Positions 7,744 through 24,312 of a DNA stretch of 32,000 nt are shown here, one piece after another. How positions within the stretch are numbered: position 1 is the stretch's first letter; every line of letters starts with the position of its first letter. The DNA lies in assembly GCA_050011565.1 (NCBI GenBank), contig JBEKIW010000001.1, positions 234,254-266,253 of the forward strand, in the 5' to 3' direction. This DNA is from Dehalococcoidia bacterium (GTDB lineage Bacteria > Chloroflexota > Dehalococcoidia > GIF9 > UBA5629). The position numbers were made by a program, and so were the translations under genes. The notes beneath the pieces are model-generated. The model was given only the letters and a program-made list of their open reading frames with translations, had not been told where the DNA came from and ran no database searches.

Positions 7744-8025
7744 TTGTTCAAGTGTGTTGTCGGACTGTTCGGGTTGCCGCACGGTATAACAGGCGAGCAT
7801 AAGGTGGAAGTTGAACTAAAGGATGAGGCGAGGCTGACTGATGTTATCGCAACTCTCCGGCGTGAAATCCCGAAACTGGAGGGGCCTGTTATCCGTGCCG
7901 GTGAAGATAAACTAACGGAGCATTACGCCTTTAATATAAACGGTCGTTTTTATATTGATGATAAGGAAATTCGAATCTGCAGTGGCGACAATGTAGGGCT
8001 ACTCGCCCTGGCTGCCGGAGGGTGA
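7744..8025 (+). CDS. MoaD/ThiS-family ubiquitin-like small protein with C-terminal Gly-Gly
   Basis: 93-aa ORF with a TTG start, so the start is uncertain. It ends ...LLALAAGG-stop. Its size and its position next to aor fit a beta-grasp sulfur-carrier-like protein. Confidence 0.65.
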   Translation: MFKCVVGLFGLPHGITGEHKVEVELKDEARLTDVIATLRREIPKLEGPVIRAGEDKLTEHYAFNINGRFYIDDKEIRICSGDNVGLLALAAGG

Positions 8026-8031
8026 CTTTAA

Positions 8032-8133
8032 AACCTGGAGTTCCAAAAAGCCGCCCTGCTCCGTGACCGCATCATCGAGCTTCGCCGCGACGAGGAGATT
8101 CTGTCGCCGCTGACCAGGTTCAATAGAGAATAG
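8032..8133 (+). pseudogene. Detached relic of the uvrB 3' end (UVR-domain C-terminus), frame intact
   Basis: It translates as [33 protein letters not shown]-stop, against uvr[32 protein letters not shown]-stop. About 77/93 nt are identical, and most differences are synonymous or conservative. There is no upstream coding continuation. Confidence 0.9.
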
Positions 8134-8148
8134 CCGCTCGGCTTTACT

Positions 8149-8240
8149 CCCTCTCCCGCGGGCGGAAGGGTGGGCAGGCATCCAATGAGGATTTACTCCC
8201 ATTGGGATACGGGGAGAGGGATAGGGTTGGGGTGAGGGTG
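8149..8240 (+). repeat. 92-nt structured intergenic repeat, copy 2
   Basis: Same orientation and length as 3644..3735, about 89% identical by manual alignment. It lies 16 nt after the uvrB relic stop. Confidence 0.85.
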
Positions 8241-8479
8241 GAACCTTATCATTTTGGTCGAAAAACGCTCGGTCAAAAGAACTAGCCTATTTGTCTACGG
8301 GGGAAACTGTGCGAAGGTATATGCCTTATCGGAGTAAGCAGATATGCCCAAAATTAATTTTGTTGGTGTATAATCAGATAAAGATTTAAATTGAATAAAT
8401 AAGTCAATCATATAGATTGTGGCATTTTCGACTAAAGATTATAAAGTCTAATTGAACATGCAACTTTAGGAAAAAACAT

Positions 8480-9973
8480 ATGTCAGAATGGACAAAGCCC
8501 GCTCTCGATGATATAGAGTTTGTTAAGGCCGTTAGCGCGATTCAGAAACGTGCTGAGAAACAAACGGACTCTGACAGATTAATCGATATTTATGTGACTA
8601 CAGACCTAGCCAATCGTGCTAGAACCACTAATTCACAGCTAGTTTTAGGCAGACGTGGCACAGGTAAGACGCATATGTTTCGCGTTTTGCAAGAAATGCT
8701 TGGAATGGAGGGAGAAGTTGCACTTTACATAGATTGTAGAATGTTAGGAAGTGCGATAACCGACTCAACAGGAAACCCCCAAGGGGTAGCTATTAAATAT
8801 TTTAGAACTCTTCTTAATGAGATTAGCACACGATTATTTGATATGGCTAGACGTATGGAAGCACCAATAAAGGATTCACAACAAAAAGTTTTCGGTACCG
8901 TCTGGGGTTTGCTCCTACAGATAGAACCTAAATCCACAGAGAAATATTATGAATCAACATTTAATTATAGGCAAATAACGGAATCAATGCAGACAATTAT
9001 TTCCGGTTTGGATATACGTCATCTATTCATAATATTGGATGAGTGGTCACAAATTCCAGTATCAGCACAACCCTATGTTGCAGAATATCTTAAAAGGGCA
9101 ATTATGACTATTCCAGAAATATGTATCAAATTATTGGCCTTAAGCTATCAATGCGACCTATCTAAACAAATCAGTGAAGGAGTAATAGGCATCAAACTTG
9201 GAGCAGATATCCCGGATGTCTTGGATTTTGATTCGTATTTAATATATGATGAAAAACCGATTTTTGTTTCAGAGTTCTTTTCTCAAGTTCTTTACAATCA
9301 TCTCGGTGCCGAACTAAACTGGGATCTCAAGATAACCGGTCAAGAAAAGAGCAAAAGGATAATAGATATATTCACACAGAATAAAGCTTTCACTGAATTA
9401 GTGCGTGCAGCTGAAGGGAATTGTAGAGATTTCCTATGCATATTTGGTAATGCATATTGGGAAGGTTATCGTAAGCAAGAGGATGTAAAAGCCATAAGTA
9501 TGTCACATGTTCGCGATGCCGCTGCTAGTTGGTTTGATAATGAAAAGTATGCAAACATACGAAATGACATACTCCCAAGTATGGCACTTATGTATATATT
9601 CAATAATCTTATCAAGGGATACAAATCTCGGACTTTCATGGTCGAAACCTCGAAATCTAAACATGAGATTTTGACCAGGTTACTAAATGAACGTGTTTTA
9701 CATAAATTACCAAGATTTGACTCGCATAAAGATAAACCTGGTGAAAGATATGAACTATTTACGATTGATTATGGGGCATATGTAAGGTTCATAGGAACCG
9801 TTTACGAGCCGAACCAAGGAATGGTTAAAAATGGATATCAAGCTAAAATGCATTTTGCAGATGAGGTGGTCACAGTGCAAGATGAAGAACAAGAATTCAT
9901 GGTTCCTCACGATGATAGACGTAGCGTACGACGTATTGTATTTGATCCAGATGCGATTAAGATTCCAAAATGA
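8480..9973 (+). CDS. Orphan P-loop NTPase (AAA+/ORC-Cdc6-like core) with uncharacterised C-terminal half
   Basis: 497 aa. Walker A is LGRRGTGKTH and Walker B is HLFIILDEWSQ. AEGNCRDFLCIF is a possible sensor-2-like segment. The gene is markedly AT-rich: spot counts of 60-nt lines give roughly 27-47% G+C, against about 60% in aor. Confidence 0.75.
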   Translation: MSEWTKPALDDIEFVKAVSAIQKRAEKQTDSDRLIDIYVTTDLANRARTTNSQLVLGRRGTGKTHMFRVLQEMLGMEGEVALYIDCRMLGSAITDSTGNPQGVAIKYFRTLLNEISTRLFDMARRMEAPIKDSQQKVFGTVWGLLLQIEPKSTEKYYESTFNYRQITESMQTIISGLDIRHLFIILDEWSQIPVSAQPYVAEYLKRAIMTIPEICIKLLALSYQCDLSKQISEGVIGIKLGADIPDVLDFDSYLIYDEKPIFVSEFFSQVLYNHLGAELNWDLKITGQEKSKRIIDIFTQNKAFTELVRAAEGNCRDFLCIFGNAYWEGYRKQEDVKAISMSHVRDAAASWFDNEKYANIRNDILPSMALMYIFNNLIKGYKSRTFMVETSKSKHEILTRLLNERVLHKLPRFDSHKDKPGERYELFTIDYGAYVRFIGTVYEPNQGMVKNGYQAKMHFADEVVTVQDEEQEFMVPHDDRRSVRRIVFDPDAIKIPK

Positions 9974-9998
9974 TTTTGCCACTGCTTGAAGCGAGCAA

Positions 9999-10088
9999 AA
10001 ATTAGAGTTTGAAAAAGTTACCCTTCCTCGGCAATCGCATTATTTAGCTGAACGAGACGCGGAGATTCTATTTTCGTTGAATATATTC
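9999..10088 (+). pseudogene. Second, strongly decayed AT-rich relic of the uvrB 3' end
   Basis: KLEFEKVTLPRQSHYLAERDAEILFSLNIF aligns position for position with [30 protein letters not shown]. The nucleotide alignment needs a +1/-1 indel pair in the middle. Recognisable blocks are TAGAGTTTGAAAAAG, TCGCATTAT, AGCTG and GACGCGGAGAT. Confidence 0.6.
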
Positions 10089-12436: not shown

Positions 12437-12498
12437 TAACAAAGGCGAAAAGAAAGAGCCGGCACCTGTTACAGAACAAGTGCCGGCTTTAAATGTGG

Positions 12499-13785
12499 CT
12501 AAGTTTTGAAGGTCAGGGTAAGGATGTCGGCAAGCTCGACTTTGTCACCTTCTCTCAATAAGTACCTGCCTTTTCCCTCGATACTGGACCTGTTCAGTTT
12601 GGTGCCGTTGGTGCTGTTGCGGTCCTCGATATAACATTCTCCATCTTCACAGTCGAATCGTATGTGCTGCCTGGAAATCAGGTCAGCTTTGTCCGGCTTC
12701 ACCAGGGAGCGGAAATCACTTCTGCCCAGAGATCCGGCATTGCCGGATAGGGATAATTGCTCACCGTTCGACAATATAAACTTCGGCCCAGGGCCCGTGT
12801 CGACGGGTGTGGTGGCCGGGGCACCATTTGCAGTCCGTGTAGCGGTAGCCAGATATCCGGCCCGTGCACCGGCATAGGCTGCGGTAGGCCTTCTAACAAA
12901 AAGGACGACGGCCGCCGCGGCGGCTACAGCCAGAAGTCCGAGCAACATGATATACAACATCCCGGAATTGCCCGAGCCGTCGCCGCTCAACCCGCTGGTC
13001 AAGATACTACTTGTTCCCGTATTGGCGACGTTTCCACTGCCGGCTATTGGCGTGCTGCTGGTGGTGTAGGTGGATACGTACGGAGCGACCGTCACGGTGG
13101 TGCTGGCATTCACGCTGCCATCGCTATTGGTAGCCGTAAGTGTATAGGTAGTTGTATAACCAGGACTCAGATTGTATGAGCCAGAACTTGGGACAGACCC
13201 AATCCCGGGGGATAAAGTGACCGTAGTTGCATCGTTCACCGTCCACGTCAGCACAATTCCCTGCCCACTCTGAATGTAAGATGGGTTAGCGGTAAACGAG
13301 TTGATTACCGGCGGACAGTCAATTTGCGGTTGAGGCTGCCGTTGAGGCTGCTGAACTACTACCACGTTCGAACATACGTAATAGGACCACCTATAGTTAC
13401 AAGGCCAGGAACATTCCGGACAACAGCGAAAGTATTGATTAGGCCACGGGGAGCTCCACCTATAGGGTGGTGGTGGTGTAGGTGGGGCAGGCGGCGGCGG
13501 AGGAGGAGGAGGAGGAGGTGGTGGTGGAGGTGGTGGAGGTGGTGGAGGTGGCGGTGGTGGCGGTGCCGATGGTGCAGGTGGTGGAGGAGCAGAAGAGGTA
13601 GAGGTGGCGGTGGCAGTAGCAGTAGCAGTGGCAGTGGCGGAGGAATCGGTGGTGGTGACCGTAGCGGTGGCCGTAGCGGTGGCCGTAGCGGTATCTTCGG
13701 CAGATACCGGTGTGGCCTGGAATACTGGCGCAGAGCATAGTAATAATGCTGCTGCAAGGACTAGGATTGCTTTTTTGAAGTTCAT
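12499..13785 (-). CDS. Type-I membrane protein FHA-A: signal peptide, (TA)n/poly-Pro stalk, Cys/Trp/Tyr-rich segment, Ig-like domain, TM helix, cytoplasmic C-terminal FHA domain
   Basis: 428 aa. The signal peptide is MNFKKAILVLAAALLLCSAPVFQATPVSA. There is a run of about 25 consecutive Pro. The Ig-like repeat is PVINSFTANPSYIQSGQGIVLTWTV...TTTYTLTATN. The TM segment MLYIMLLGLLAVAAAAAVVLFV is followed by RR. FHA signature: LGRSDF...ISRQHIRF...DRNSTNGTKLN. RBS AAGGAGG is present. Confidence 0.9.
   Translation of the reverse strand: MNFKKAILVLAAALLLCSAPVFQATPVSAEDTATATATATATVTTTDSSATATATATATATSTSSAPPPPAPSAPPPPPPPPPPPPPPPPPPPPPPPPPAPPTPPPPYRWSSPWPNQYFRCCPECSWPCNYRWSYYVCSNVVVVQQPQRQPQPQIDCPPVINSFTANPSYIQSGQGIVLTWTVNDATTVTLSPGIGSVPSSGSYNLSPGYTTTYTLTATNSDGSVNASTTVTVAPYVSTYTTSSTPIAGSGNVANTGTSSILTSGLSGDGSGNSGMLYIMLLGLLAVAAAAAVVLFVRRPTAAYAGARAGYLATATRTANGAPATTPVDTGPGPKFILSNGEQLSLSGNAGSLGRSDFRSLVKPDKADLISRQHIRFDCEDGECYIEDRNSTNGTKLNRSSIEGKGRYLLREGDKVELADILTLTFKT
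13489..13700 (-). repeat. Low-complexity trinucleotide/hexanucleotide repeat tract inside FHA-A (poly-Pro and Thr-Ala repeats)
   Basis: 13489-13563 is 25 consecutive NGG triplets on the + strand, which are CCN Pro codons on the - strand. 13590-13700 contains GGCAGTAGCAGTAGCAGTGGCAGTGGC and three tandem GTAGCGGTGGCC-like units encoding (TA)n. Confidence 0.9.
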
Positions 13786-13805
13786 TGTACCTCCTTATTT
13801 ATTTT

Positions 13806-13886
13806 TTATTTTTTAAACTTCAATAACAGAACAGAGCAAACCAAAAATGCTGTTGTCAGGATGAAAATTGTCTTTCTGAAATTCAT
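13806..13886 (-). CDS. 26-aa signal-peptide-like mini-ORF (possible relic of a paralogous 5' end)
   Basis: It translates as MNFRKTIFILTTAFLVCSVLLLKFKK-stop. Its RBS AAGGAG lies inside the last codons of FHA-B. The RBS and first codons (AATAAGGAGtgaccATGAATTTCAGAAAG) closely parallel the FHA-A start (AATAAGGAGgtacaATGAACTTCAAAAAA). Whether it is expressed is unknown. Confidence 0.35.
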   Translation of the reverse strand: MNFRKTIFILTTAFLVCSVLLLKFKK

Positions 13887-13888
13887 GG

Positions 13889-15490
13889 TCACTCCTTATT
13901 TATATTTTGTTTCTGGAAATTGATGCTAAGTTTGCCGGCAAGCTCAATTACATCGCCGTCAGCCAGCGCATGCCGGCCGGTCCCCTTGATATCCGTACCG
14001 TTGACCCTGGTGCCGTTGGTGCTGCTGCGGTCCTCGATGTAGTACTGGTCGTTTTCGGACCATATGTTGATGTGCTGCCTGGATATGTAAGAGACCTGTG
14101 CACTGGGCATGAAATCCTCAAAGTCACGCCTGCCGAACGACCTGGTATTACCTGCCAGCAGTATATCGTTCCCGCCCGCCAGGGAGAGTTTAGCCGCGGC
14201 GGCCTCTACCACAGGCGTGGTGACTGGCTGTGTATCCGAGGTATTTGTGTCTTCAGTCTGAGTGGCGTGTCCTGCTTGTGTGTCTGCCGCCTGTACCCTG
14301 CGGGCTTTAGCAGGTCTCCTGATAAGCAAAATGGCTATGACTATGACCGTTATGGCCAGCAAGGCTATAAGGCCCCAGAGCAAATAGGGCGGCTGCTCTA
14401 CATTGACCGTTACCGATGTTGACTGCGAAGTACCGTCAATATAGGCAGCGGTCAGGGTGTACGTAGTCGTATTATCCGGCGATACCTGCGTGGTGCCGCT
14501 GATGTCGGCGCTGCCGACGCCGGTGATTAGTACCCGGATTGCCCCGGGGGCATTCCAGTAGAGGGACGTCGACTGCCCCCTCTGTATGGTGGACTGGCTC
14601 ATATTAATGGTGGGCGACACCCTGGGCCTGACCGTTATGGTTGCAGTCGATGAAACAGAGCTGCCCGATTTGCCGTTGGCCGCCAGAGTATAGGTGGTGG
14701 TGGCGGTTGGACTCACCGTAGTAGAGCCGGAAGCGGCGACCGTTCCAACTCCGGGTGATATGCTCACGCTGGCAGCGTTAGTGGTCGTCCAGGTGAGTAT
14801 AGCTGTCTCACCGGCTTCGATAGAAGATTTGTTGGCGCTGAATGAGCTAATCGATGGGGGATTATAAACCGGCGCCGGCGTAAAGTCGGGTATGTCCGGT
14901 GGATAATAACTCCGGATGTAATTGAAGTTCAATAAACGCGTCGACCATGAATACCCGGAAAGGAACCACATCCTCCAGGTGTACCCTCCGGCAGGGTCAA
15001 ACGACTGGGCGGCAAAAGGACCTATTCTCCAGACGCCGGCGTACGGGCGATACCATCTGTAACACAGCCAGTGTCCGTAGGGCGAAGTGCCGTAAGGGTA
15101 GTATTCCCATAGATAGAAATAGCCCGGCCCGTTGAAGGAAACGACCAGATAGATTGCCTCGTTTCCATATAGGTTGCTCAGTGTCTGACCGTAGCTGTTG
15201 ACGAGGTAGGCATTTACCATTGAGCTCGGGATACCGGGTTCCAGGGACAGCGGCGCCATTTGCAGGCTCGGCGAGGTCTGGCTGTATGTTTCCGCTGGCA
15301 CCGGTGGCTCTATAGACTCTCCTCCTTCATCGGGAGGTTGCCATGATTCATCAGGGCTTAATGGCGGAACCGGGTTGTCGTCTGCCCGGACGGGTGAGAT
15401 TTCAGTAATGGCGACTGAGAAAGCCAGGGTGGTGACCAGCAAAGCTATCAAGATTTTTTTCATGTGTGACATTAAACTCCCGAATACCAT
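13889..15490 (-). CDS. Type-I membrane protein FHA-B: signal peptide, W/Y-rich ectodomain, two Ig-like repeats, TM helix, TQ-rich linker, cytoplasmic C-terminal FHA domain
   Basis: 533-aa maximal ORF. The likely start is M7 (15472) or M10 (15463), giving MKKILIALLVTTLAFSVAIT as the signal peptide. The TM segment LLWGLIALLAITVIVIAILLI is followed by RRPAKARR. FHA signature: FGRRDF...ISRQHINI...DRSSTNGTRVN. Confidence 0.9.
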   Translation of the reverse strand: MVFGSLMSHMKKILIALLVTTLAFSVAITEISPVRADDNPVPPLSPDESWQPPDEGGESIEPPVPAETYSQTSPSLQMAPLSLEPGIPSSMVNAYLVNSYGQTLSNLYGNEAIYLVVSFNGPGYFYLWEYYPYGTSPYGHWLCYRWYRPYAGVWRIGPFAAQSFDPAGGYTWRMWFLSGYSWSTRLLNFNYIRSYYPPDIPDFTPAPVYNPPSISSFSANKSSIEAGETAILTWTTTNAASVSISPGVGTVAASGSTTVSPTATTTYTLAANGKSGSSVSSTATITVRPRVSPTINMSQSTIQRGQSTSLYWNAPGAIRVLITGVGSADISGTTQVSPDNTTTYTLTAAYIDGTSQSTSVTVNVEQPPYLLWGLIALLAITVIVIAILLIRRPAKARRVQAADTQAGHATQTEDTNTSDTQPVTTPVVEAAAAKLSLAGGNDILLAGNTRSFGRRDFEDFMPSAQVSYISRQHINIWSENDQYYIEDRSSTNGTRVNGTDIKGTGRHALADGDVIELAGKLSINFQKQNINKE

Positions 15491-15534
15491 ATGTTCTATT
15501 AAGATTAACTATACGTCTGGCGGGAGCAGGCTGC

Positions 15535-15573
15535 TTGACTCTGGGCTGACAGGTCACTGACAGTTACCTGACA
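15535..15573 (+). promoter_or_regulatory. Four direct repeats of (C/T)TGAC(A/T) spaced exactly 11 bp apart; candidate OmpR/PhoB-type operator upstream of FHA-B
   Basis: TTGACT starts at 15535 and CTGACA at 15546, 15557 and 15568. The block lies 21 bp upstream, in the minus-strand sense, of a TATAGT -10-like hexamer (15513..15508). That hexamer has no recognisable -35. Confidence 0.5.
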
Positions 15574-15634
15574 AAATAGAAGACGCAGATAAATTATTAT
15601 TGAGGGGTTAATCTGTGATGGGTTTTCCCAGGGG

Positions 15635-16717
15635 TCAAAGGAGGTGAAACTTTAGATGTACCGCACCGGCCGGTTCTATAATGTCATCGTCATCCAGGCT
15701 GACCGGTCCCTGGCCGCTGATGTCCTTGCCGTTTAGATGGGTGCCGTTGGCGCTGCCCAGGTCCTCGACGTAGAACTGCTCGTCGTCCAATTTAATCTGG
15801 AAATGTCGTCTGGAGATGAGCCCCAGGTCATCCAGGCTTAGCGCTCTGGCGAGGTCACCCCGGCCTATCACTCTGCTCTTGCCGGAAAGCTGAATATCGA
15901 TGCCATTGGGTAAGGTTATTTTTGCCCTGGCGGCTGATGGTAAGGCTGCAGATAGGTCTTTAGTCTTTGCCCCACCTGACGAGGATACACTATCCTGACT
16001 TCTCCTTCGCCTGATATAAATCGGCAGCAGAGCCAGACCGACCACTACGACCAGCAGGCAGGCGCCGAGAACCGGCCGGGTGATAAGTCCAAAGACTGTA
16101 GCGGGGAAGCTAGCTTCTTTGGCAGGGGCTTCGGGTGATGGTGGCGGTACCGGCTCAGCAGGTTTGCCTTTCGAATACGTCCAGTAAACAAGATTATTCT
16201 GTGGAGTATCCGGGTTTCCAGCAGCCCATTGGCCGTCGCTGTAGAACCGAATCCGGTAAATATGTTGTCCCTCCGGTTCGTTATTCGTGGGTGTAAAGGG
16301 GCCAAGCCGCCACAGGCCGCTTTCCAGCAATTGCCATTTGTAGGCTAGCCACTGTCCCTGAAAATCACCGCCAGCCGGAAAGGATTCATATATATAAATC
16401 CACCCGGGCATGTTTATGTCCACGTCCAGGTACCAGTTTTCATTTGCAGTGACCGTGAATTCTTCCTGTCCTGAGGCAGCGATGAAACCAGCTATAAAGT
16501 TAGGAGTCGTATTTTCAGACTGAGACGTAGGTTCCACCAGGACATATTCGACCGGCGGCTTGATTTCAACCTGAGACTGGTCGCCGGCGGGGACATTCGG
16601 TATAGTCGTATTATCAGTTGGCGCTCCCAGCGCCCCGACATATGCCGTCTGGAGGCTCAGCGCTGAAAAAACGCCGAAAATCAAAGTAAAAGTAAGCAAC
16701 AGTAACGCTTTTCTCAT
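15635..16717 (-). CDS. Type-I membrane protein FHA-C: signal peptide, W/Y-rich ectodomain homologous to FHA-B, TM helix, cytoplasmic C-terminal FHA domain
   Basis: 360 aa. The signal peptide is MRKALLLLTFTLIFGVFSALS. The TM segment LGACLLVVVVGLALLPIYI is followed by RRRRS. FHA signature: IGRGDL...ISRRHFQI...DLGSANGTHLN. Its start overlaps the kinase stop by 4 nt (ATGA). Confidence 0.9.
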   Translation of the reverse strand: MRKALLLLTFTLIFGVFSALSLQTAYVGALGAPTDNTTIPNVPAGDQSQVEIKPPVEYVLVEPTSQSENTTPNFIAGFIAASGQEEFTVTANENWYLDVDINMPGWIYIYESFPAGGDFQGQWLAYKWQLLESGLWRLGPFTPTNNEPEGQHIYRIRFYSDGQWAAGNPDTPQNNLVYWTYSKGKPAEPVPPPSPEAPAKEASFPATVFGLITRPVLGACLLVVVVGLALLPIYIRRRRSQDSVSSSGGAKTKDLSAALPSAARAKITLPNGIDIQLSGKSRVIGRGDLARALSLDDLGLISRRHFQIKLDDEQFYVEDLGSANGTHLNGKDISGQGPVSLDDDDIIEPAGAVHLKFHLL

Positions 16718-17739
16718 TTCCGTGACTTGACCTCGACAGACTTTACCGGATAGCCGTCCGCTGACGATAAAGCGGCACGAAAAGCTTGTGCGTCAGCAAA
16801 CCTGTGGTCGGCGGAGAACAGTATGCCCTGTGCCAGGCATTTTGCCGTGCGCTTGGATATGCCGCAGGAAATAAGGTAATCGGCAACAGCAGTGGCTTCA
16901 GCGTAAGAACGCGGCCAGTTGGACTTGAACAAGTCCAGGCAAATCTCGTTCGGCTGCTTGAGTGTGAGGAGATATATACAGGTCTGTGCCAGGCCGAAGA
17001 GGTCGCAGCGCTGGTCGCAGTCCCCGCCAATGAACAATTCGGGAATATCGAAACCCTTGTTTGTTATCTTGGTGAACGGGTCATGGCCTGCCTTATCTTT
17101 GCCTGAACCATTCAAGTTTTTCGCCGTGCCGAAATCGATAAGCTTGACCGTGCCGTCGCTGCTCAACATGATGTTCTTTGGGTTAATATCCCTGTGAATT
17201 ACGCCAGCTTTGTGAATATAGGAAAGAGCATCCAGCAGCTGGCAAGCCCAGGCGACGACCTGTGGCTCCTGAAAAGGAGTTCTCGGCGATGATGCCATTA
17301 GGGTCTCTCCATTCACGTACTCAACGACCAGGTGAAATTCGCCCTTATAGTAGAAATTGTCGACGTATTTAACGATGCCGGTATGTTTCAGCCGCTTCAG
17401 GTAGCTGGCTTCCAGCATCAGCTTGTCCAGGTACACGTTATCCATCGTCGTGCCCCGGCGCGGTGTCTTGATAATGCACGCCCTGCCTGTTCTGCGCTCC
17501 CGGGCGAACCATATAGTCGCCATGCCACCCTGTTTATGAGGCGGTGCCATCAGTTCATAGCGACTGTTAACGACGTATATGTTATTACCCGCCTGGGCAG
17601 GTATCTGTGTCTTCCCGTGGTTTGAACGTGAGCTGTGGCTCTTACGCTTACGAAGGGCAATCAATATAGCCACGGCTACTATCAGAACCGTATAGACCAG
17701 GACCATTAACAAAACGATATCATCTGTAGGCCACATCAT
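16714..17739 (-). CDS. Membrane-anchored Hanks-type Ser/Thr protein kinase without ectodomain
   Basis: 341 aa. About 7 N-terminal residues precede the TM helix IVLLMVLVYTVLIVAVAILIAL, which is followed by RKRK. Kinase motifs are the CIIK lysine, catalytic loop HRDINPKN, DFG (LIDFGTAK) and an IPE (APE-like) motif. It has ATGA overlaps with both neighbours. Confidence 0.9.
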   Translation of the reverse strand: MMWPTDDIVLLMVLVYTVLIVAVAILIALRKRKSHSSRSNHGKTQIPAQAGNNIYVVNSRYELMAPPHKQGGMATIWFARERRTGRACIIKTPRRGTTMDNVYLDKLMLEASYLKRLKHTGIVKYVDNFYYKGEFHLVVEYVNGETLMASSPRTPFQEPQVVAWACQLLDALSYIHKAGVIHRDINPKNIMLSSDGTVKLIDFGTAKNLNGSGKDKAGHDPFTKITNKGFDIPELFIGGDCDQRCDLFGLAQTCIYLLTLKQPNEICLDLFKSNWPRSYAEATAVADYLISCGISKRTAKCLAQGILFSADHRFADAQAFRAALSSADGYPVKSVEVKSRK

Positions 17740-18554
17740 ATTCTCCTGATGCTGGTCTGGGCTGTAATCATAGCCTGCCAGGATGGAAGGTTGTCGGGTT
17801 TCACCACTATTATCGATATATTATCCGGTCCGCCCGCCAGGTTAGCCTGAGCCGTCAGGTCAATGCAGGCCTGGTTGGGATTGGGAGAACCGGTAACGGT
17901 CTCCGATATCTCAGGTGAAGGCAACACGCCGCACAGACCGTCGGAACAGAGGAGGATATTGTCACCGGCGTATAGTTTTACATGAAACAGGTCCGGGACA
18001 ACGGTCCGGGCATAACCAAGTACGCGCGTTATCTCGTTCTTGCGCGGGTGGTTCCAGGCTTGTTCCGGTGTGATAGTTCCTGCATCCACGAGCTGTTGGA
18101 CTACAGAATGGTCTTTGGTGATCTGGATGGTCTCCCGTCCGTTGATTACATAGCACCTGGAATCGCCTATATGGGCGACATATAGGTCCTCACCTACAAC
18201 AAGTGCAGCGGTCAGGGTAGTACCCATGCCTTTCAACTCACCCTCGGCGGCAGAATCCAGAACCTTGCGGTTAGCCTTCTTGAAGGCAGCAGCCAAAATA
18301 GACAGGGGTGGAGTCGGGGACTGGGCGAGAAGACCGGAAATACACTCTGCATGGAGGGTCCTGGTGGCGAGGTCGCTGGCAATTTCACCGGCACTGTGCC
18401 CGCCCATACCGTCTGCCACGGCAAAGAGGCCAGCGGAGATTGTTCCCAGGTGGGTCCTGAGATCGAAGCTGGTGCATAAAACGCTATCTTCGTTGAGGTC
18501 TCTTAGCAGACCTGTGTCCCAGCTATAACCTATTTCCAATCGGTCCTCCGGCAT
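17736..18554 (-). CDS. PP2C-family Ser/Thr protein phosphatase
   Basis: 272 aa. The PP2C motifs are NEDS, FAVADGMGGHSAGEIAS, LLCSDGL and GGPDNISIIVV. Confidence 0.92.
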   Translation of the reverse strand: MPEDRLEIGYSWDTGLLRDLNEDSVLCTSFDLRTHLGTISAGLFAVADGMGGHSAGEIASDLATRTLHAECISGLLAQSPTPPLSILAAAFKKANRKVLDSAAEGELKGMGTTLTAALVVGEDLYVAHIGDSRCYVINGRETIQITKDHSVVQQLVDAGTITPEQAWNHPRKNEITRVLGYARTVVPDLFHVKLYAGDNILLCSDGLCGVLPSPEISETVTGSPNPNQACIDLTAQANLAGGPDNISIIVVKPDNLPSWQAMITAQTSIRRI

Positions 18555-18561
18555 TTCTGCT

Positions 18562-19158
18562 TCATTTCGACTCTTTCAGCAATTTGAAAGTCAGTGTAAG
18601 TTCCGGCTGACCGGCCAGTTCAATCTTATCGCCGTCTTGGAGAGCCTTCTTTCTTTTGTCATAGATATCAATTCCGTTAAGCCTGGTATGGTTGGTGCTG
18701 CCCTTACCGTCGCGTCCGTAGTCCTTCAAGTAGTATTTGCCTCTATCACAGGTAATCAAAATATGCTGCCTGGAAACTCTCATCAGCAACTCTGGTGATA
18801 ATGTGCCGTTAAAATCGCCGCGCTCTATGAACACAGGCTCACCGGTGAGGGTGATTTCACCACCGCCCGGCATCATCACCTTAGCTTTCGGCGCCGAAGA
18901 CCGCAGTGCGCCCCGTTTCTGCCTGACTGGCCGCTTGCTTATTTTTGTTTCCTCTACATCGGCGAAATATTTACCGCAGGTGTAACAGAAAAAACTGGCG
19001 GCATTGTTTGTGCTCCGGCACCTGGGGCAGATGATTTTGCGTTCAGGCCCGTCCGGCGCTATGGCGGCAAGAGGCAGCCCGCATTTGCGACAGACTTTTT
19101 CGTGCGGCTCATTCTTTGTATGGCATGCCCGACAAAGCACTTTGGCTCGTTTAGTCAT
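18562..19158 (-). CDS. Double zinc-ribbon + FHA domain protein
   Basis: The start is taken at MTKRAKV (19158); the alternative MLKPRTAKIM is at 19185. There are two CxxC...CxxC ribbons (CRACHTKNEPHEKVCRKC and CPRCRSTNNAASFFCYTC). The C-terminal FHA has variant signature residues (IERGDF...VSRQHILI...GSTNHTRLN). The 410-aa ORF extension is rejected because it overlaps the divergent gene and the promoter region. Confidence 0.85.
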   Translation of the reverse strand: MTKRAKVLCRACHTKNEPHEKVCRKCGLPLAAIAPDGPERKIICPRCRSTNNAASFFCYTCGKYFADVEETKISKRPVRQKRGALRSSAPKAKVMMPGGGEITLTGEPVFIERGDFNGTLSPELLMRVSRQHILITCDRGKYYLKDYGRDGKGSTNHTRLNGIDIYDKRKKALQDGDKIELAGQPELTLTFKLLKESK

Positions 19159-19213
19159 TATTTTAGCAGTCCGTGGTTTTAACATCAGTGTAATTGATTG
19201 ATGAGGACTTTGC

Positions 19214-19242
19214 TTGACAGCTTTCTGACAAATACCTAATAT
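19214..19242 (+). promoter_or_regulatory. Sigma70-like promoter of the FHA-wHTH gene, overlapped by two 11-bp-phased TGACA repeats
   Basis: TTGACA (19214-19219), a 17-nt spacer, then TAATAT (19237-19242). TGACA starts at 19215 and 19226. The string TGACAGctttCTGACAAAT is about 15/19 identical to TGACAGttacCTGACAAAA at 15558-15576. A perfect minus-strand TATAAT at 19291..19286 may serve the divergent operon. Confidence 0.55.
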
Positions 19243-19333
19243 AAATCTGATATACTCATGGTTACGGGACGATTGTGACGTACGTATTATACTACAGGGA
19301 GCGAATACGGGCCCAAACGAATGGAGGTAAGGC

Positions 19334-20017
19334 GTGGCTTCTCTAATTGTGAAGAGGGGTAATGCGGAGGATGTCGGTAAAATCTTCACTTTGAACGACT
19401 CGTCTACCGTGGTGGGCCGCCTGACTTCGCAGAATAAACCTGATATAGAATTGGGCGCCGATGTTATTTCCAGACGGCACCTGGAAATCCTGCTGCAGGA
19501 TGGCAGGTACTGGCTGAAAGACCTGGGCAGCACCAACGGCACCATGCTAAATGATGACAGGATAATTCCTGGCAATCTATACGAACTCAAGCATAACAGC
19601 AAGATCGGGCTTGGGGTGGAAGGAACTTCAGCGCAAACAGTTCTGCAGTTTAAGGAATCCGAAGATACTAACATAATGCACGGGAAAGAACCCCCGGCTG
19701 GAAAGCACGGCACGTTCCCTGCAGTGGCATGGCTGAAAATCGACGAGGGGAAAAAGGAAGCTGTGGTAGACGGCAAACAGCAGAAGCTATCCAAAAAGGA
19801 GTATGAGCTGATACGGTTGCTCTATAGAAATGCCGGAAATATATGCTCGCGTGACGAGATAATTGAAGCCGTATGGCCCGAAAGCCAGGACCCTTCGGCT
19901 ATATCCGATGCCACCATCGACCAGCTAATTCACCGGCTGCGTGAAAAAGTGGAACCCGAACCTGCCAGCCCCTCGCGTATCATCAGCAAAAAAGCATTCG
20001 GTTATATGCTGGTGTAA
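19334..20017 (+). CDS. FHA domain / OmpR-PhoB-type winged-helix DNA-binding fusion protein
   Basis: 227 aa with a GTG start and RBS GGAGG 7 nt upstream. N-terminal FHA signature: VGRLTS...ISRRHLEI...DLGSTNGTMLN. The C-terminal Trans_reg_C-like region is LSKKEYELIRLLYRNAGNICSRDEIIEAVW...IDQLIHRLREKVEP...FGYML. Confidence 0.88.
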   Translation: MASLIVKRGNAEDVGKIFTLNDSSTVVGRLTSQNKPDIELGADVISRRHLEILLQDGRYWLKDLGSTNGTMLNDDRIIPGNLYELKHNSKIGLGVEGTSAQTVLQFKESEDTNIMHGKEPPAGKHGTFPAVAWLKIDEGKKEAVVDGKQQKLSKKEYELIRLLYRNAGNICSRDEIIEAVWPESQDPSAISDATIDQLIHRLREKVEPEPASPSRIISKKAFGYMLV

Positions 20018-22619: not shown

Positions 22620-22907
22620 ATGTGGCAGATACATTTTTGTCCCCACTGCGGGGCCAGAGCCGCGTATAGCGCCAGATTCTGCGGCACTTGCGGTTTTGAC
22701 TTAACATCGGTAGCGCCAGAGGTACCGCCTCCGTCCTATGACTATCAGTATCCGTATCAGCAATGGGTACCATCGGCGGCGTATATAGATCAAGTACAGC
22801 AGAGATTCGTACCTGGAAGTGATATAAATGCCAGGCCGATGAGCGCCGAGATTTCAAAGCTGCTGGGAGACTTATTCGATAAACGCCTTAAATACAACAA
22901 GGCATAG
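22620..22907 (+). CDS. Small zinc-ribbon protein with P/Y/Q-rich tail
   Basis: 95 aa. CPHCGARAAYSARFCGTCG is a CxxC-N10-CxxC ribbon. It is followed by PPPSYDYQYPYQQW, and the gene is followed by a terminator. Confidence 0.7.
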   Translation: MWQIHFCPHCGARAAYSARFCGTCGFDLTSVAPEVPPPSYDYQYPYQQWVPSAAYIDQVQQRFVPGSDINARPMSAEISKLLGDLFDKRLKYNKA

Positions 22908-23016: not shown

Positions 23017-24312
23017 CTACAGAGTAGAATCAGGGTTCGTCTCATCTGTAGCTTTTTTTGCCGTCTCTGAGTCCGGTGGTATAGGTATGGCCGGAGCTTC
23101 AGTAATTACAGGATAGTCTGAGGCAGCCGGTGCCGATGGCGCCGCTTCCAGCACCTGGCCGGGTACGGCAGCCGGCATGGGATATGTCGTCAATGTCGGT
23201 TCAGGAGTTGGAGCCGGTTCGACTACCGGCAAAGATGATACCGGCAGTGCCGGTTCGGGTGTGATTTCCGGTGACGGAACTGTTGCCACCGCAAAATCCG
23301 GGTTTAACTCATTTGTGGCTTCAGGAGTCTGTAATGTCTCAGGTGCCGGCGTGGTTTCCGGTGAGGGTTCTATTGCGGTAGCAGAATCAATGTTTAGCTC
23401 ATTCGTAGCTTCTGGAGTCTGTAAAGTCTCCGGTGCCGGCACGGCTGGAATCTCAGTAATTACAGGAGTCTCTGTTGCAGCTGGTGTAGATGGGGTCGTT
23501 TCCAGCACCTGGTCGGGGACATCAACCGGTGTCGAATATGTGGCTAAGGCAGGCTCCGGAGCCGGTGTCAGTTCAGCTGAGTCTGATACTGATGGCTCAA
23601 ATGTTACCGGAGATAGTATTGCTGCGGGGAGCTCCCCAGTTGTTATTTCATTCGCTGCCATAGGCTCGGTTGCCGGAGTGCCGGCTGTTACATCTGTTAA
23701 TATCGGGTGCGGGAAGGTTACGCACTGTGGGTCAGGGCTGCGTGAAGGATGTGGATTTGGACAGGGCGAAGGATGTGGATGTGGACAGGGTGAAGGTTCA
23801 GGTTGGGGGGAGGGAGGTCCGAAAGGATGATTTCCCCAAGGGCTATAGTGATTACCAAAAAGATATGGATAAAAATAATAAGAAGAAAGTAGCCATGAGC
23901 TTGGTGAATAACAGGTCGTGGGACAGGGCGGTGTATAAGAGCAGGGTAATTGATATGAACTCGGTGGTTGGTATGTGCAGGGATTGTAATAATAGGGTGA
24001 CGCGGTCACACATCCATACGGACTAATCAGATTGTTGTTGACACAGTCTTGCGCAGCTTTATCACAGGTGCTGCACTCCGTCGATGTCTGTTGGAGCTGG
24101 TTTTGAAGCTGCTGGTTCTGATTCTGCACGTTTTGAAGCGCCTCTTGCGTGGCCTGCAGGTTATTTTGCGTCGTTTCCAGCGATAAACTCAGCGCCTGTA
24201 CTTTGTATTGAAGTTCCTGCAGGTCTTTCTGGCTGGCAGCAGGAGTACAGGCAGCACCGAGGAATGTAACTAAAAGTAGTAGTGAAGCTAGCCCGCATAC
24301 CTTTTTTAACAT
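23017..24312 (-). CDS. Secreted lipoprotein: Q-rich coiled-coil, Cys/Tyr/Pro-rich module, Pro/Thr/Glu-rich repeats
   Basis: 431 aa. The signal peptide carries a lipobox (LLLLVTFLGAAC). The heptad-like Q-rich segment is LQATQEALQNVQNQNQQLQNQLQQ. The C/Y/P-rich block is CVTASPYYYNPCTYQPPSSYQLPCSYTPPCPTTCY...PHPHPSPCPNPHP. The C-terminal half is built from internal repeats. Confidence 0.8.
   Translation of the reverse strand: MLKKVCGLASLLLLVTFLGAACTPAASQKDLQELQYKVQALSLSLETTQNNLQATQEALQNVQNQNQQLQNQLQQTSTECSTCDKAAQDCVNNNLISPYGCVTASPYYYNPCTYQPPSSYQLPCSYTPPCPTTCYSPSSWLLSSYYFYPYLFGNHYSPWGNHPFGPPSPQPEPSPCPHPHPSPCPNPHPSRSPDPQCVTFPHPILTDVTAGTPATEPMAANEITTGELPAAILSPVTFEPSVSDSAELTPAPEPALATYSTPVDVPDQVLETTPSTPAATETPVITEIPAVPAPETLQTPEATNELNIDSATAIEPSPETTPAPETLQTPEATNELNPDFAVATVPSPEITPEPALPVSSLPVVEPAPTPEPTLTTYPMPAAVPGQVLEAAPSAPAASDYPVITEAPAIPIPPDSETAKKATDETNPDSTL
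23265..23444 (-). repeat. Two tandem 90-nt (30-aa) repeats inside the lipoprotein gene, flanked by a second ~135-nt repeat pair
   Basis: 23265-23354 and 23355-23444 are near-identical and encode PAPETLQTPEATNELN(I/P)D... A longer unit at about 23093-23225 recurs at about 23447-23580. It encodes PEP.L.TY..P..VP.QVLE..PS.PAA...PVITE.PA.P. Confidence 0.85.

Follow-up and report, generated by a model that had tools for sequence, protein, structure and literature searches.

The genome of a Dehalococcoidia bacterium (GTDB lineage Bacteria; Chloroflexota; Dehalococcoidia; GIF9; UBA5629; assembly GCA_050011565.1) carries a seven-gene locus of predicted phosphothreonine (pThr) signaling on contig JBEKIW010000001.1. 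We analyzed a stretch of 32,000 nucleotides around it (contig positions 234,254 to 266,253), called the window here, and all coordinates refer to this window. Three genes encode membrane proteins with an FHA domain (A, B and C); the others encode a Hanks-type kinase (K), a PP2C phosphatase (P), a zinc-ribbon-FHA protein (Z) and a protein that joins an FHA domain to a winged helix-turn-helix (wHTH) domain (R). Domains were called with Pfam above the curated cut-offs, and topology was taken from hydropathy. All the parts lie within 7.5 kb: a single writer and a single eraser, five readers, and two promoters that bear operators (Table 1). A first-pass annotation made from the sequence had listed these seven genes with their domains, two ATGA overlaps, the topology of A, B and C and a kinase devoid of an ectodomain, and open reading frames (ORFs), Pfam and hydropathy agree with it on all these points. 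Its ORF positions also hold, except for two gene starts. The start of Z is 19158 (MTKRAKV, 198 amino acids; gene call) and does not lie further upstream, and the start of B is most likely 15463 (MKKIL), the same as in the B orthologues. The overlaps join the P stop to the K start and the K stop to the C start, and K is predicted to be co-transcribed and translationally coupled both with its PP2C eraser and with C.

Table 1. Genes and regulatory features of the locus, in window coordinates (aa, amino acids; TM, transmembrane helix; Ig, immunoglobulin; nt, nucleotides).
Feature	Position	Strand	Description
A	12499-13785	-	428 aa type-I membrane protein with C-terminal FHA (Pfam); signal peptide, TA-repeat and poly-Pro, Cys-rich stretch, one Ig-like domain, TM, Thr-rich linker with ATTPV, FHA
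B	13889-15463	-	Type-I membrane protein with C-terminal FHA (Pfam), ORF reaching 15490; signal peptide, D1 beta-sandwich, two Ig-like domains, TM with PPYLLWGLIAL, Thr-rich linker with TTPV, FHA
C	15635-16717	-	360 aa type-I membrane protein with C-terminal FHA (Pfam); signal peptide, D1 beta-sandwich, TM, RRRR, linker without Thr motif, FHA
K	16714-17739	-	Hanks-type kinase, 341 aa, one N-terminal TM (Pfam Pkinase)
P	17736-18554	-	Soluble PP2C phosphatase, 272 aa (Pfam PP2C)
Z	18562-19158	-	Cytosolic, 198 aa, first operon gene (Pfam DZR and FHA)
R	19334-20017	+	227 aa; N-terminal FHA, C-terminal OmpR/PhoB-type winged helix (Pfam FHA and Trans_reg_C)
P_Z, promoter-like, Z-P-K-C operon	19187-19254	-	Four heptads at 11-bp spacing, second degenerate; proximal heptad GTCAAGCA (19218 to 19211), 18 nt, then TACACT (19192 to 19187)
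P_B, promoter-like, B (and A)	15508-15574	-	TTGTCAG-N4-CTGTCAG-N4-CTGTCAG-N4-GAGTCAAGCA, 18 nt, TATAGT (15513 to 15508)
R promoter, sigma70-like	19214-19242	+	TTGACA, 17 nt, TAATAT; 10/12 consensus positions
Hairpin, intrinsic-terminator-like	12457-12488	-	14 pairs, T-rich tail; 11 nt after the A stop
Conserved block (A)TATATTATACTGCAA in R leader	19285-19300		Contains minus-strand TATAAT; shared by nearly all of the orthologous loci

The seven-gene neighborhood, on which the proposal of a functional module depends, recurs across related genomes. Scanning one genome for each GTDB species gave 54 loci (L003-L056), all from uncultured metagenome-assembled genomes (MAGs). Kinase identity across the 54 orthologous loci is 58-92% and then falls sharply to at most 36%, the range of generic kinases. 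When the window proteins were compared with the ORFs found at these loci, the gene order Z-P-K-C-B-A, with R divergent from Z and the orientation of all seven genes kept, was seen in 34 of the 54 loci. Contig ends interrupt 17 loci, and only three are true exceptions: B and A are both missing from L023 and L050, and A is missing from L045. The genes R-Z-P-K are present in all loci that reach far enough upstream, as is C in all that reach far enough downstream, and the module forms one locus per contig in most sampled genomes. An extra gene lies between C and B in L033, L048 and L053. The flanks, on the other hand, turn over, and the SpoU, CDP-alcohol phosphatidyltransferase and NMO genes of the window recur only in its closest relatives. 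Because the arrangement recurs in 54 species-level genomes, we read the seven genes as one conserved unit and not as a product of chance. If K and P acted generally on many substrates, with the FHA genes as mere neighbors and no dedicated pathway, the pleiotropy that is frequent among bacterial Hanks kinases (PMC4601284, PMC6213207) would be in keeping with it. Such a co-location is nevertheless very improbable and disfavored, given an order and orientation that stay invariant over 58-92% kinase identity while the flanks change, the translational coupling of two gene pairs, and a single operator type shared by both in-cluster promoters (see below).

In two of these loci a large protein is encoded directly after C, with 1067 amino acids in L023 (12876-16079) and 744 amino acids in L048 (12167-14401), where it lies between C and B. 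Both proteins end in a hydrophobic C-terminal anchor with a basic tail, and they look like a further surface protein recruited to the neighborhood of the module.

K consists of one TM and a kinase domain and has no ectodomain (Pfam, hydropathy). The TM spans approximately residues 8-28, with seven residues before it and RKRK after it. The kinase domain scores 117.7 bits with PF00069 (cut-off 31.7), and its nearest solved structures are the kinase domains of PknB and CDPK. K does not have the PknB/PASTA receptor architecture, since its TM precedes the kinase domain and it carries no PASTA or other ectodomain; the NCBIfam model PknB_PASTA gave 113 bits at a cut-off of 450. A homologue search returned 506 matches at E<=1e-10, and among the 120 homologues listed nearly all have 330-358 amino acids and the same TM-first layout. 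Residues K91, E110, H182-R183-D184, N189, D202-F203, T223 and R313 are invariant in 33 K orthologues, and G204 is nearly so. By its sequence K is classed as an RD kinase, and T223, nine residues before IPE, would by its spacing occupy the canonical activation-loop position. The catalytic loop reads HRD(I/V)NPKN, hence D-(I/V)-N-P-K-N compared to the canonical D-x-K-P-x-N; the Lys is found two positions later, and the variant is invariant in the family. A scan with two patterns, one of them HRD[IV]NPKN, also brought up distant kinases of about 30% identity from Spirochaetota, Bathyarchaeia and other archaea. These may share the NPKN loop variant, and kinases with the shifted Lys may constitute an undescribed subfamily. 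A juxtamembrane docking site on K was considered and dropped, as the KTQ found there is not conserved. The phosphatase P belongs with the Stp1/IreP family (NCBIfam NF033484, 241.9 bits, cut-off 230) and keeps the metal-binding motifs NED, DGMGGH, GDSR, SDGL and GGPDN in 51 sequences.

All five FHA proteins (A, B, C, Z and R) pass PF00498, and the best NCBIfam match of their FHA domains is FhaB/FipA, below the cut-off. The pThr-contacting Arg in the beta3-4 loop, the Ser-x-x-His in beta4-5 and the Asn in beta6-7 are kept in all five families, so that the predicted phosphothreonine binding residues appear intact throughout. A, B and R conserve the signature GR, SRxH and (S/A)NGT, and C does so to a slightly lesser degree. 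The deviating signature that had been pointed out in Z (ER...STNHT) is indeed a property of the family: it has E for the first Gly and H for the second, keeps R, SRQH and N, and is conserved in 52 Z sequences.

R resembles a response regulator in which an FHA domain takes the place of the receiver. Its C-terminal half scores 69 bits with PF00486 (cut-off 26.2) and matches a PhoB model best in NCBIfam, and the recognition helix is invariant among orthologues. Matches in the PDB were response-regulator DNA-binding domains together with the FHA domains of GarA and OdhI. A receiver domain is absent, residues 1-108 being FHA and a Response_reg match not being found; there is also no histidine kinase among the annotated products of the locus. 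No BTAD match was obtained with Pfam, and the domain order is the reverse of that in EmbR. Just past the FHA domain lies Thr112 in the motif F-K-E-(S/T)-E-x-T-N-(I/L/V)-(I/L/M). This Thr is present in 47 of 47 sequences, always with I, L or M at +3.

A second set of candidate threonines is found in the surface proteins. The cytoplasmic linkers of A and B contain 17% Thr and, about 10 residues before the FHA domain, the motif T(T/S)P(V/I/L/A), while the linker of C contains 6% Thr and lacks TTP. The linker motif is present in 28 of 33 A orthologues and is mostly TTPV in B; V, I or L stands at +3 in 29 of the 35 motif occurrences in the A tails. Since many FHA domains select pT-x-x-(I/L/V), Thr112 of R and the tail motifs of A and B are plausible candidates both for kinase sites and for FHA ligands. 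The best conserved pT-x-x-aliphatic motifs belong to R and to the tails of A and B, and not to the kinase.

Upstream of the Z-P-K-C operon and of B lie two promoter-like regions, P_Z and P_B, that share the same geometry. Each has four (C)TGTCAG heptads with GTCA cores exactly 11 bp apart, the last one being GTCAAGCA, and then, after 18 nt, a -10-like hexamer. The heptad block between R and Z is nearly invariant in about 50 loci, and a related block is found between C and B. The pattern TGACR-N6-TGACR occurs three times in the window (0.11 expected), always within P_Z and P_B, and 115 times across the orthologous loci (approximately 7 expected). Furthermore, the B-type array travels with B past the inserted gene in L048, L033 and L053, and it is absent in L023 and L050, which have no B. 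The sigma70-like promoter of R is located inside the P_Z array on the opposite strand, and both of its hexamers are conserved across loci. The second P_Z heptad is degenerate because it encodes the -10 element of R, and R bound to this array is consequently predicted to shut off its own promoter. The hairpin after A is the probable end of the transcription unit. The (A)TATATTATACTGCAA block could be a second, upstream promoter of the Z operon or an element of the R leader.

The pho box is made of TGTCA-containing direct repeats with an 11-bp period. Activators of the OmpR/PhoB family use boxes that replace the -35 element (PMC10570014), and the P_Z and P_B arrays resemble pho and pmrA boxes at the -35 position. 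No other protein of the module binds DNA, and R combines a wHTH nearest to PhoB models with an invariant recognition helix; we therefore infer that R is the likely binder of the putative heptad operators. That R provides the transcriptional output, as had been proposed, is very probable in view of heptad arrays that precede the Z operon and B in nearly every locus.

We also scanned metagenome contigs for GTCAG-N6-GTCAG-N6-GTCAAGCA, which gave at least 120 matches. Among the matches listed, 38 lie upstream of B orthologues, two upstream of Z and one upstream of an A-like gene; 13 are on contigs too short for assignment, and 65, which include some plain tandem repeats, precede unrelated or unknown genes on contigs whose origin is unknown. 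Further regulon members can be claimed from none of the listed matches. Arrays of GTCAG at 11-bp spacing that end in GTCAAGCA and are followed by a -10-like hexamer were seen upstream of unrelated genes (L083-L202), and a CGTCAG variant array recurs ahead of a dnaX-like gene in metagenome contigs. The GTCAG 11-bp box type may be used more widely.

The three surface proteins share a common topology. A, B and C start with a signal-like hydrophobic segment ending in VSA, VRA or VGA and have one later TM, directly followed by RRP or RRRR (hydropathy). The predicted arrangement places the beta-sandwich ectodomains of A, B and C outside the cell and their FHA readers inside, with Z and R as cytosolic readers. 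The three are mosaic paralogues: A and B are 37% identical over 316 amino acids comprising the Ig-like domain, TM, linker and FHA, and B and C have in common a D1 domain (31.5% identity over 130 amino acids) as well as the FHA domain. Orthologues of B are 58-93% identical over 93-100% of the query, except for one fragment, and those of C are 54-93% identical. A, with orthologues in 34 loci, is the most variable, chiefly in its N-terminal part of Thr/Ala repeat and poly-Pro. These comparisons indicate three distinct orthologous families, each of them retained. The first-pass annotation had suggested that the three could be interchangeable receptors; this is not supported, as the families differ in domain content, tail motifs and transcription unit.

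Residues of A from about 30 to 105 (window 13480-13700) form a Thr/Ala dipeptide repeat, a run of about 35 Pro and then a Cys- and Trp-rich stretch. Their length and sequence differ greatly between species, and they look like a stalk or a glycosylation region. In B, the membrane-proximal PPYLLWGLIAL is conserved far beyond the need of an anchor, a hint that it makes specific intramembrane contacts.

An AlphaFold2 model of B (mean predicted local distance difference test, pLDDT, 72) comprises a signal helix, a disordered stretch, the D1 beta-sandwich (91-192), two Ig-like domains (213-288 and 294-365; pLDDT 82-94), the TM (369-389), a disordered linker (391-429) and the FHA domain (433-527). 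Foldseek searches of the PDB with the full model found generic tandem-Ig matches only, among them adhesins, cell-adhesion molecules and an archaeal S-layer protein, and a model of D1 by itself (pLDDT 82.7) had no PDB match at E<1e-3. Matches of such a generic beta-sandwich kind allow no ligand to be inferred for the ectodomains. A D1 profile searched against 1.84 billion representative proteins returned 84 clusters, made up either of proteins with a signal peptide, D1, optional Ig-like domains, TM and FHA or of D1 proteins with a bare C-terminal TM anchor. With only 84 such clusters, none of them fused to a kinase, D1 counts as a rare module of surface proteins that lacks annotation. D1-like domains are also present, together with a C-terminal TM anchor, in proteins of Thermoprotei archaea, Thermofilum among them (P0288, P0314 and their clusters), and the D1 surface module seems to be common to Dehalococcoidia and archaea.

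These properties of the surface proteins bear on the direction in which the system works. A, B and C could be structural surface or S-layer-type proteins, with FHA tails that let a kinase sensing a cytoplasmic or membrane cue govern their clustering, insertion or turnover; the ectodomains would then be the output. Models for such inside-out control are PpkA-PppA-Fha1 in type VI secretion and the FHA domains of YscD and EssC. The ectodomains match adhesins, cell-adhesion molecules and an S-layer protein, if only generically, D1-like domains also occur in surface proteins with a bare C-terminal TM, including those of Thermoprotei, and the Thr/Ala-repeat and poly-Pro regions of A are stalk-like. 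B and A moreover have an R-type promoter of their own, which would make them transcriptional targets of the module, and they carry the candidate phospho-acceptor motifs, which would make them substrates. Inside-out control nevertheless leaves K without any input domain and does not explain why C, which has no phospho-motif, is coupled to the kinase; secretion or assembly machinery was not found among the annotated products nearby either. We consider this reading rather unlikely.

A further possibility is that surface sentinels detect a phage or an epibiont and pass the signal through the kinase, phosphatase and FHA proteins to a transcriptional defense output. The Esr system works by such a logic, with surface sensors, a Ser/Thr kinase-phosphatase pair and a Thr-phosphorylated FHA output that is often fused to a zinc finger (PMC13622651). 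In favor of it, Z combines a zinc ribbon with an FHA domain, A is hypervariable from species to species in its N-terminal part, and K matches PADLOC kinase models such as PD-T4-6 and Mad6. These PADLOC matches, however, reflect generic kinase-domain similarity, and the ectodomains of B and C are strongly conserved and not diversifying. The MoxR, vWA and beta-propeller components were not found in the seven proteins or their annotated neighbors, the module is stably inherited amid housekeeping genes, and the operator targets detected are its own genes only. Threat sensing is hence improbable. A known anti-phage system was rejected: PADLOC component sets are unmatched, with generic matches of K to PD-T4-6, Mad6 and MkoA, a weak one of P and none of A, B, C, Z or R.

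We favor a reading in which the seven genes are a dedicated module and R acts on the promoters of the module itself, which we regard as probable. The fuller description, a self-contained and autoregulated membrane phosphothreonine module that is clade-specific in Dehalococcoidia and in which the FHA domain of R replaces the receiver domain, stands in our estimate at an even chance. In the proposed mechanism, active K would phosphorylate Thr112 of R as well as T(T/S)P(V/I/L) in the cytoplasmic tails that A and B carry. These marks would be read by FHA domains, so that K, A, B and C assemble into a complex at the membrane. R molecules would pair in trans through FHA-pT112 contacts, as a functional equivalent of receiver-domain dimerization; binding in cis is unlikely, because T112 is only about six residues from the end of the domain, and the pT68-FHA dimerization of Chk2 is a precedent for pairing in trans. 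Oligomeric R would occupy the four-heptad arrays and activate Z-P-K-C and B-A, a positive feedback that would yield more surface protein, whereas R on the P_Z array would block its own sigma70-type promoter, a negative autoregulation. PP2C would remove the marks and reset the system.

How the input reaches the kinase is the less certain part. Because K has no input domain, the signal probably comes through a membrane partner, and extracytoplasmic input would most likely reach the sensor-less K through one or more of the ectodomain proteins. C would be the best candidate for a constitutive co-receptor or partner of K, given its translational coupling to K and its constant presence, and as it does not resemble a substrate. 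B and A would be regulated outputs, probable substrates and possible sensors at once. For this outside-in co-receptor part we see an even chance at best. The split receptor-kinase that had been proposed from the first pass thus remains plausible as an arrangement, but it receives no direct receptor support, the ectodomains being generically Ig-like and D1 never kinase-fused in 84 clusters. The most far-reaching version would make the locus a complete two-component system in Thr-phosphorylation form, with the layout of a split type-I receptor kinase: ectodomain proteins coupled by FHA and pThr to a bare kinase, a PhoB-like R with FHA/pThr112 in place of the receiver, and trans pairing that leads to binding of the 11-bp repeats and an autoregulatory loop. 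We offer this version tentatively and hold it to be unlikely as a whole.

Several points weigh against the mechanism favored here. The catalytic loop of K is noncanonical, which means that the predicted kinase activity is assumed. K also lacks a well-conserved pT-x-x-aliphatic docking motif, as T223 has T or A at +3. Fold searches with the B and D1 models revealed no recognizable ligand-binding fold in the ectodomains, and D1-kinase fusions, found in 0 of the 84 clusters, give the receptor role neither Rosetta-stone support nor a refutation. The promoter scan as a whole was not above chance, and the binding of R to the heptads is deduced from co-conservation and family knowledge. All biochemical steps are predictions, the organisms are all uncultured MAGs, and the signaling direction may be outside-in or inside-out.

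The annotated neighbors of the module are housekeeping genes (YebC, RuvC, RuvA, RmuC, aldehyde:ferredoxin oxidoreductase, SpoU methylase, CDP-alcohol phosphatidyltransferase, FtsK and RNase J), and therefore the locus is chromosomal and does not look like a mobile island. An 83.5-kb metagenome contig (ENA ERZ27250144 k141_524054) contains the window. Named homologues of the window proteins come from Dehalococcoidia or Chloroflexota MAGs, and an Rfam search of the window matched no RNA element. At 8001-10000 the G+C content of the window is 0.37-0.43, compared to about 0.52 elsewhere, and an ORF in this stretch (8480-9973, plus strand, 497 amino acids) has a weak match to ORC/CDC6-like ATPases; the low-G+C stretch may be a foreign insertion. 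Approximately 3 kb from R, a zinc-ribbon protein of 95 amino acids (22620-22907, plus strand) and a protein of 431 amino acids without a Pfam match (23017-24312, minus strand) are encoded. Homologues of the latter are found near the module only in the closest relatives (L003, L004, L010 and L056).

The composition of the module had been suspected to be new, and searches of the literature, NCBIfam and PADLOC returned no description of it. The same searches also yielded no characterized regulator that has FHA at its N-terminus and an OmpR-type domain at its C-terminus. A paper on conflict systems (eLife 2020) mentions FHA and PP2C in other contexts only. There is a general likeness to the actinobacterial cluster fhaA-fhaB-pstP-rodA-pbpA-pknA-pknB, which is also a conserved operon of FHA proteins, PP2C and membrane Hanks kinases, and in which FhaB/FipA is a membrane-anchored FHA protein like those of the module. 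The module differs from it in having neither rodA nor pbpA and in having a single kinase with an N-terminal TM and no PASTA or other ectodomain. Its membrane FHA proteins are reversed in topology, with a large ectodomain outside and, inside, an FHA domain at the C-terminus, and it adds a dedicated DNA-binding FHA regulator with operators of its own. EmbR of Mycobacterium tuberculosis (wHTH, BTAD, FHA) and its kinase PknH likewise bring an OmpR-like winged helix and an FHA domain under a membrane Ser/Thr kinase, as we would expect for R. In R, however, the order is reversed with the FHA domain N-terminal, BTAD is lacking, the protein has the size of a response regulator with the FHA at the place of the receiver, and the wHTH is nearer to PhoB than to SARP regulators.

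Single elements of the module recall other systems. In plants, the membrane-anchored FHA domain of KAPP docks on pThr of a single-pass receptor-like kinase, which PP2C resets. FHA and PP2C are described there as one polypeptide and the kinase bears the ectodomain, whereas in the module it is the FHA proteins that bear ectodomains, and the kinase has none. FraH of Anabaena combines a double zinc ribbon, a Pro-rich region and an FHA domain and acts in filament integrity; Z has the same domain composition as FraH is described to have, and nothing ties it to filament integrity. The type VI secretion pathway (PpkA-PppA-Fha1/TagH) does not apply, since none of its components was found among the annotated products up to 10 kb on either side of the kinase or among the other window ORFs scanned, and matches of module proteins to the TagH model were far below cut-off.

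With the class II promoters of PhoB and PmrA, P_Z and P_B share 7-bp TGTCA direct repeats with an 11-bp period, the direction of transcription and a -10 element without a canonical -35 (PMC10570014). The module has four repeats instead of two, a putative activator without receiver or phospho-Asp, and a Thr kinase in place of the histidine kinase. Esr of Actinomycetales likewise has separate surface proteins, a Ser/Thr kinase with a phosphatase and zinc-finger-FHA variants, and its FHA output is Thr-phosphorylated in a disordered segment and leads to a transcriptional response (PMC13622651), steps that are predicted for the module. In contrast to Esr, the module lacks a MoxR ATPase, a vWA protein and a sensor of the beta-propeller type, and its surface proteins carry FHA domains themselves. 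A precedent for a split sensor and kinase is GlnH-GlnX-PknG-GarA of mycobacteria, in which a sensor-less kinase is fed by separate extracytoplasmic sensors and acts on an FHA protein (PMC6069109). PknG, however, is soluble with TPR and rubredoxin domains, a solute-binding lipoprotein and a polytopic membrane protein make up the sensor, and there is neither an FHA domain on the sensors nor a dedicated transcription factor (PMC6069109).

The module is thus a member of none of the systems compared, though its kinase/PP2C/FHA logic is that of the actinobacterial cluster and of EmbR-PknH, its promoters recall PhoB or PmrA, and its separation of sensor and kinase recalls GlnH-GlnX-PknG or Esr. To our knowledge, cultured Dehalococcoidia lack peptidoglycan and hence the usual ligand of PASTA kinases, and the module is a first lead on envelope signaling in this class. 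Although the hosts are uncultured, the sites predicted here, namely Thr112 of R, the TTPV of the A and B tails and the arrays of heptads, are defined well enough for heterologous work. Clusters of kinase, PP2C and FHA genes are known, and in most of them input and transcriptional output have not been identified. Compared to these, the module suggests candidates at both ends: separate single-pass surface proteins that serve a sensor-less kinase, and an OmpR/PhoB DNA-binding domain that is driven by Thr instead of Asp phosphorylation, through an FHA domain next to an invariant pT-x-x-aliphatic motif.

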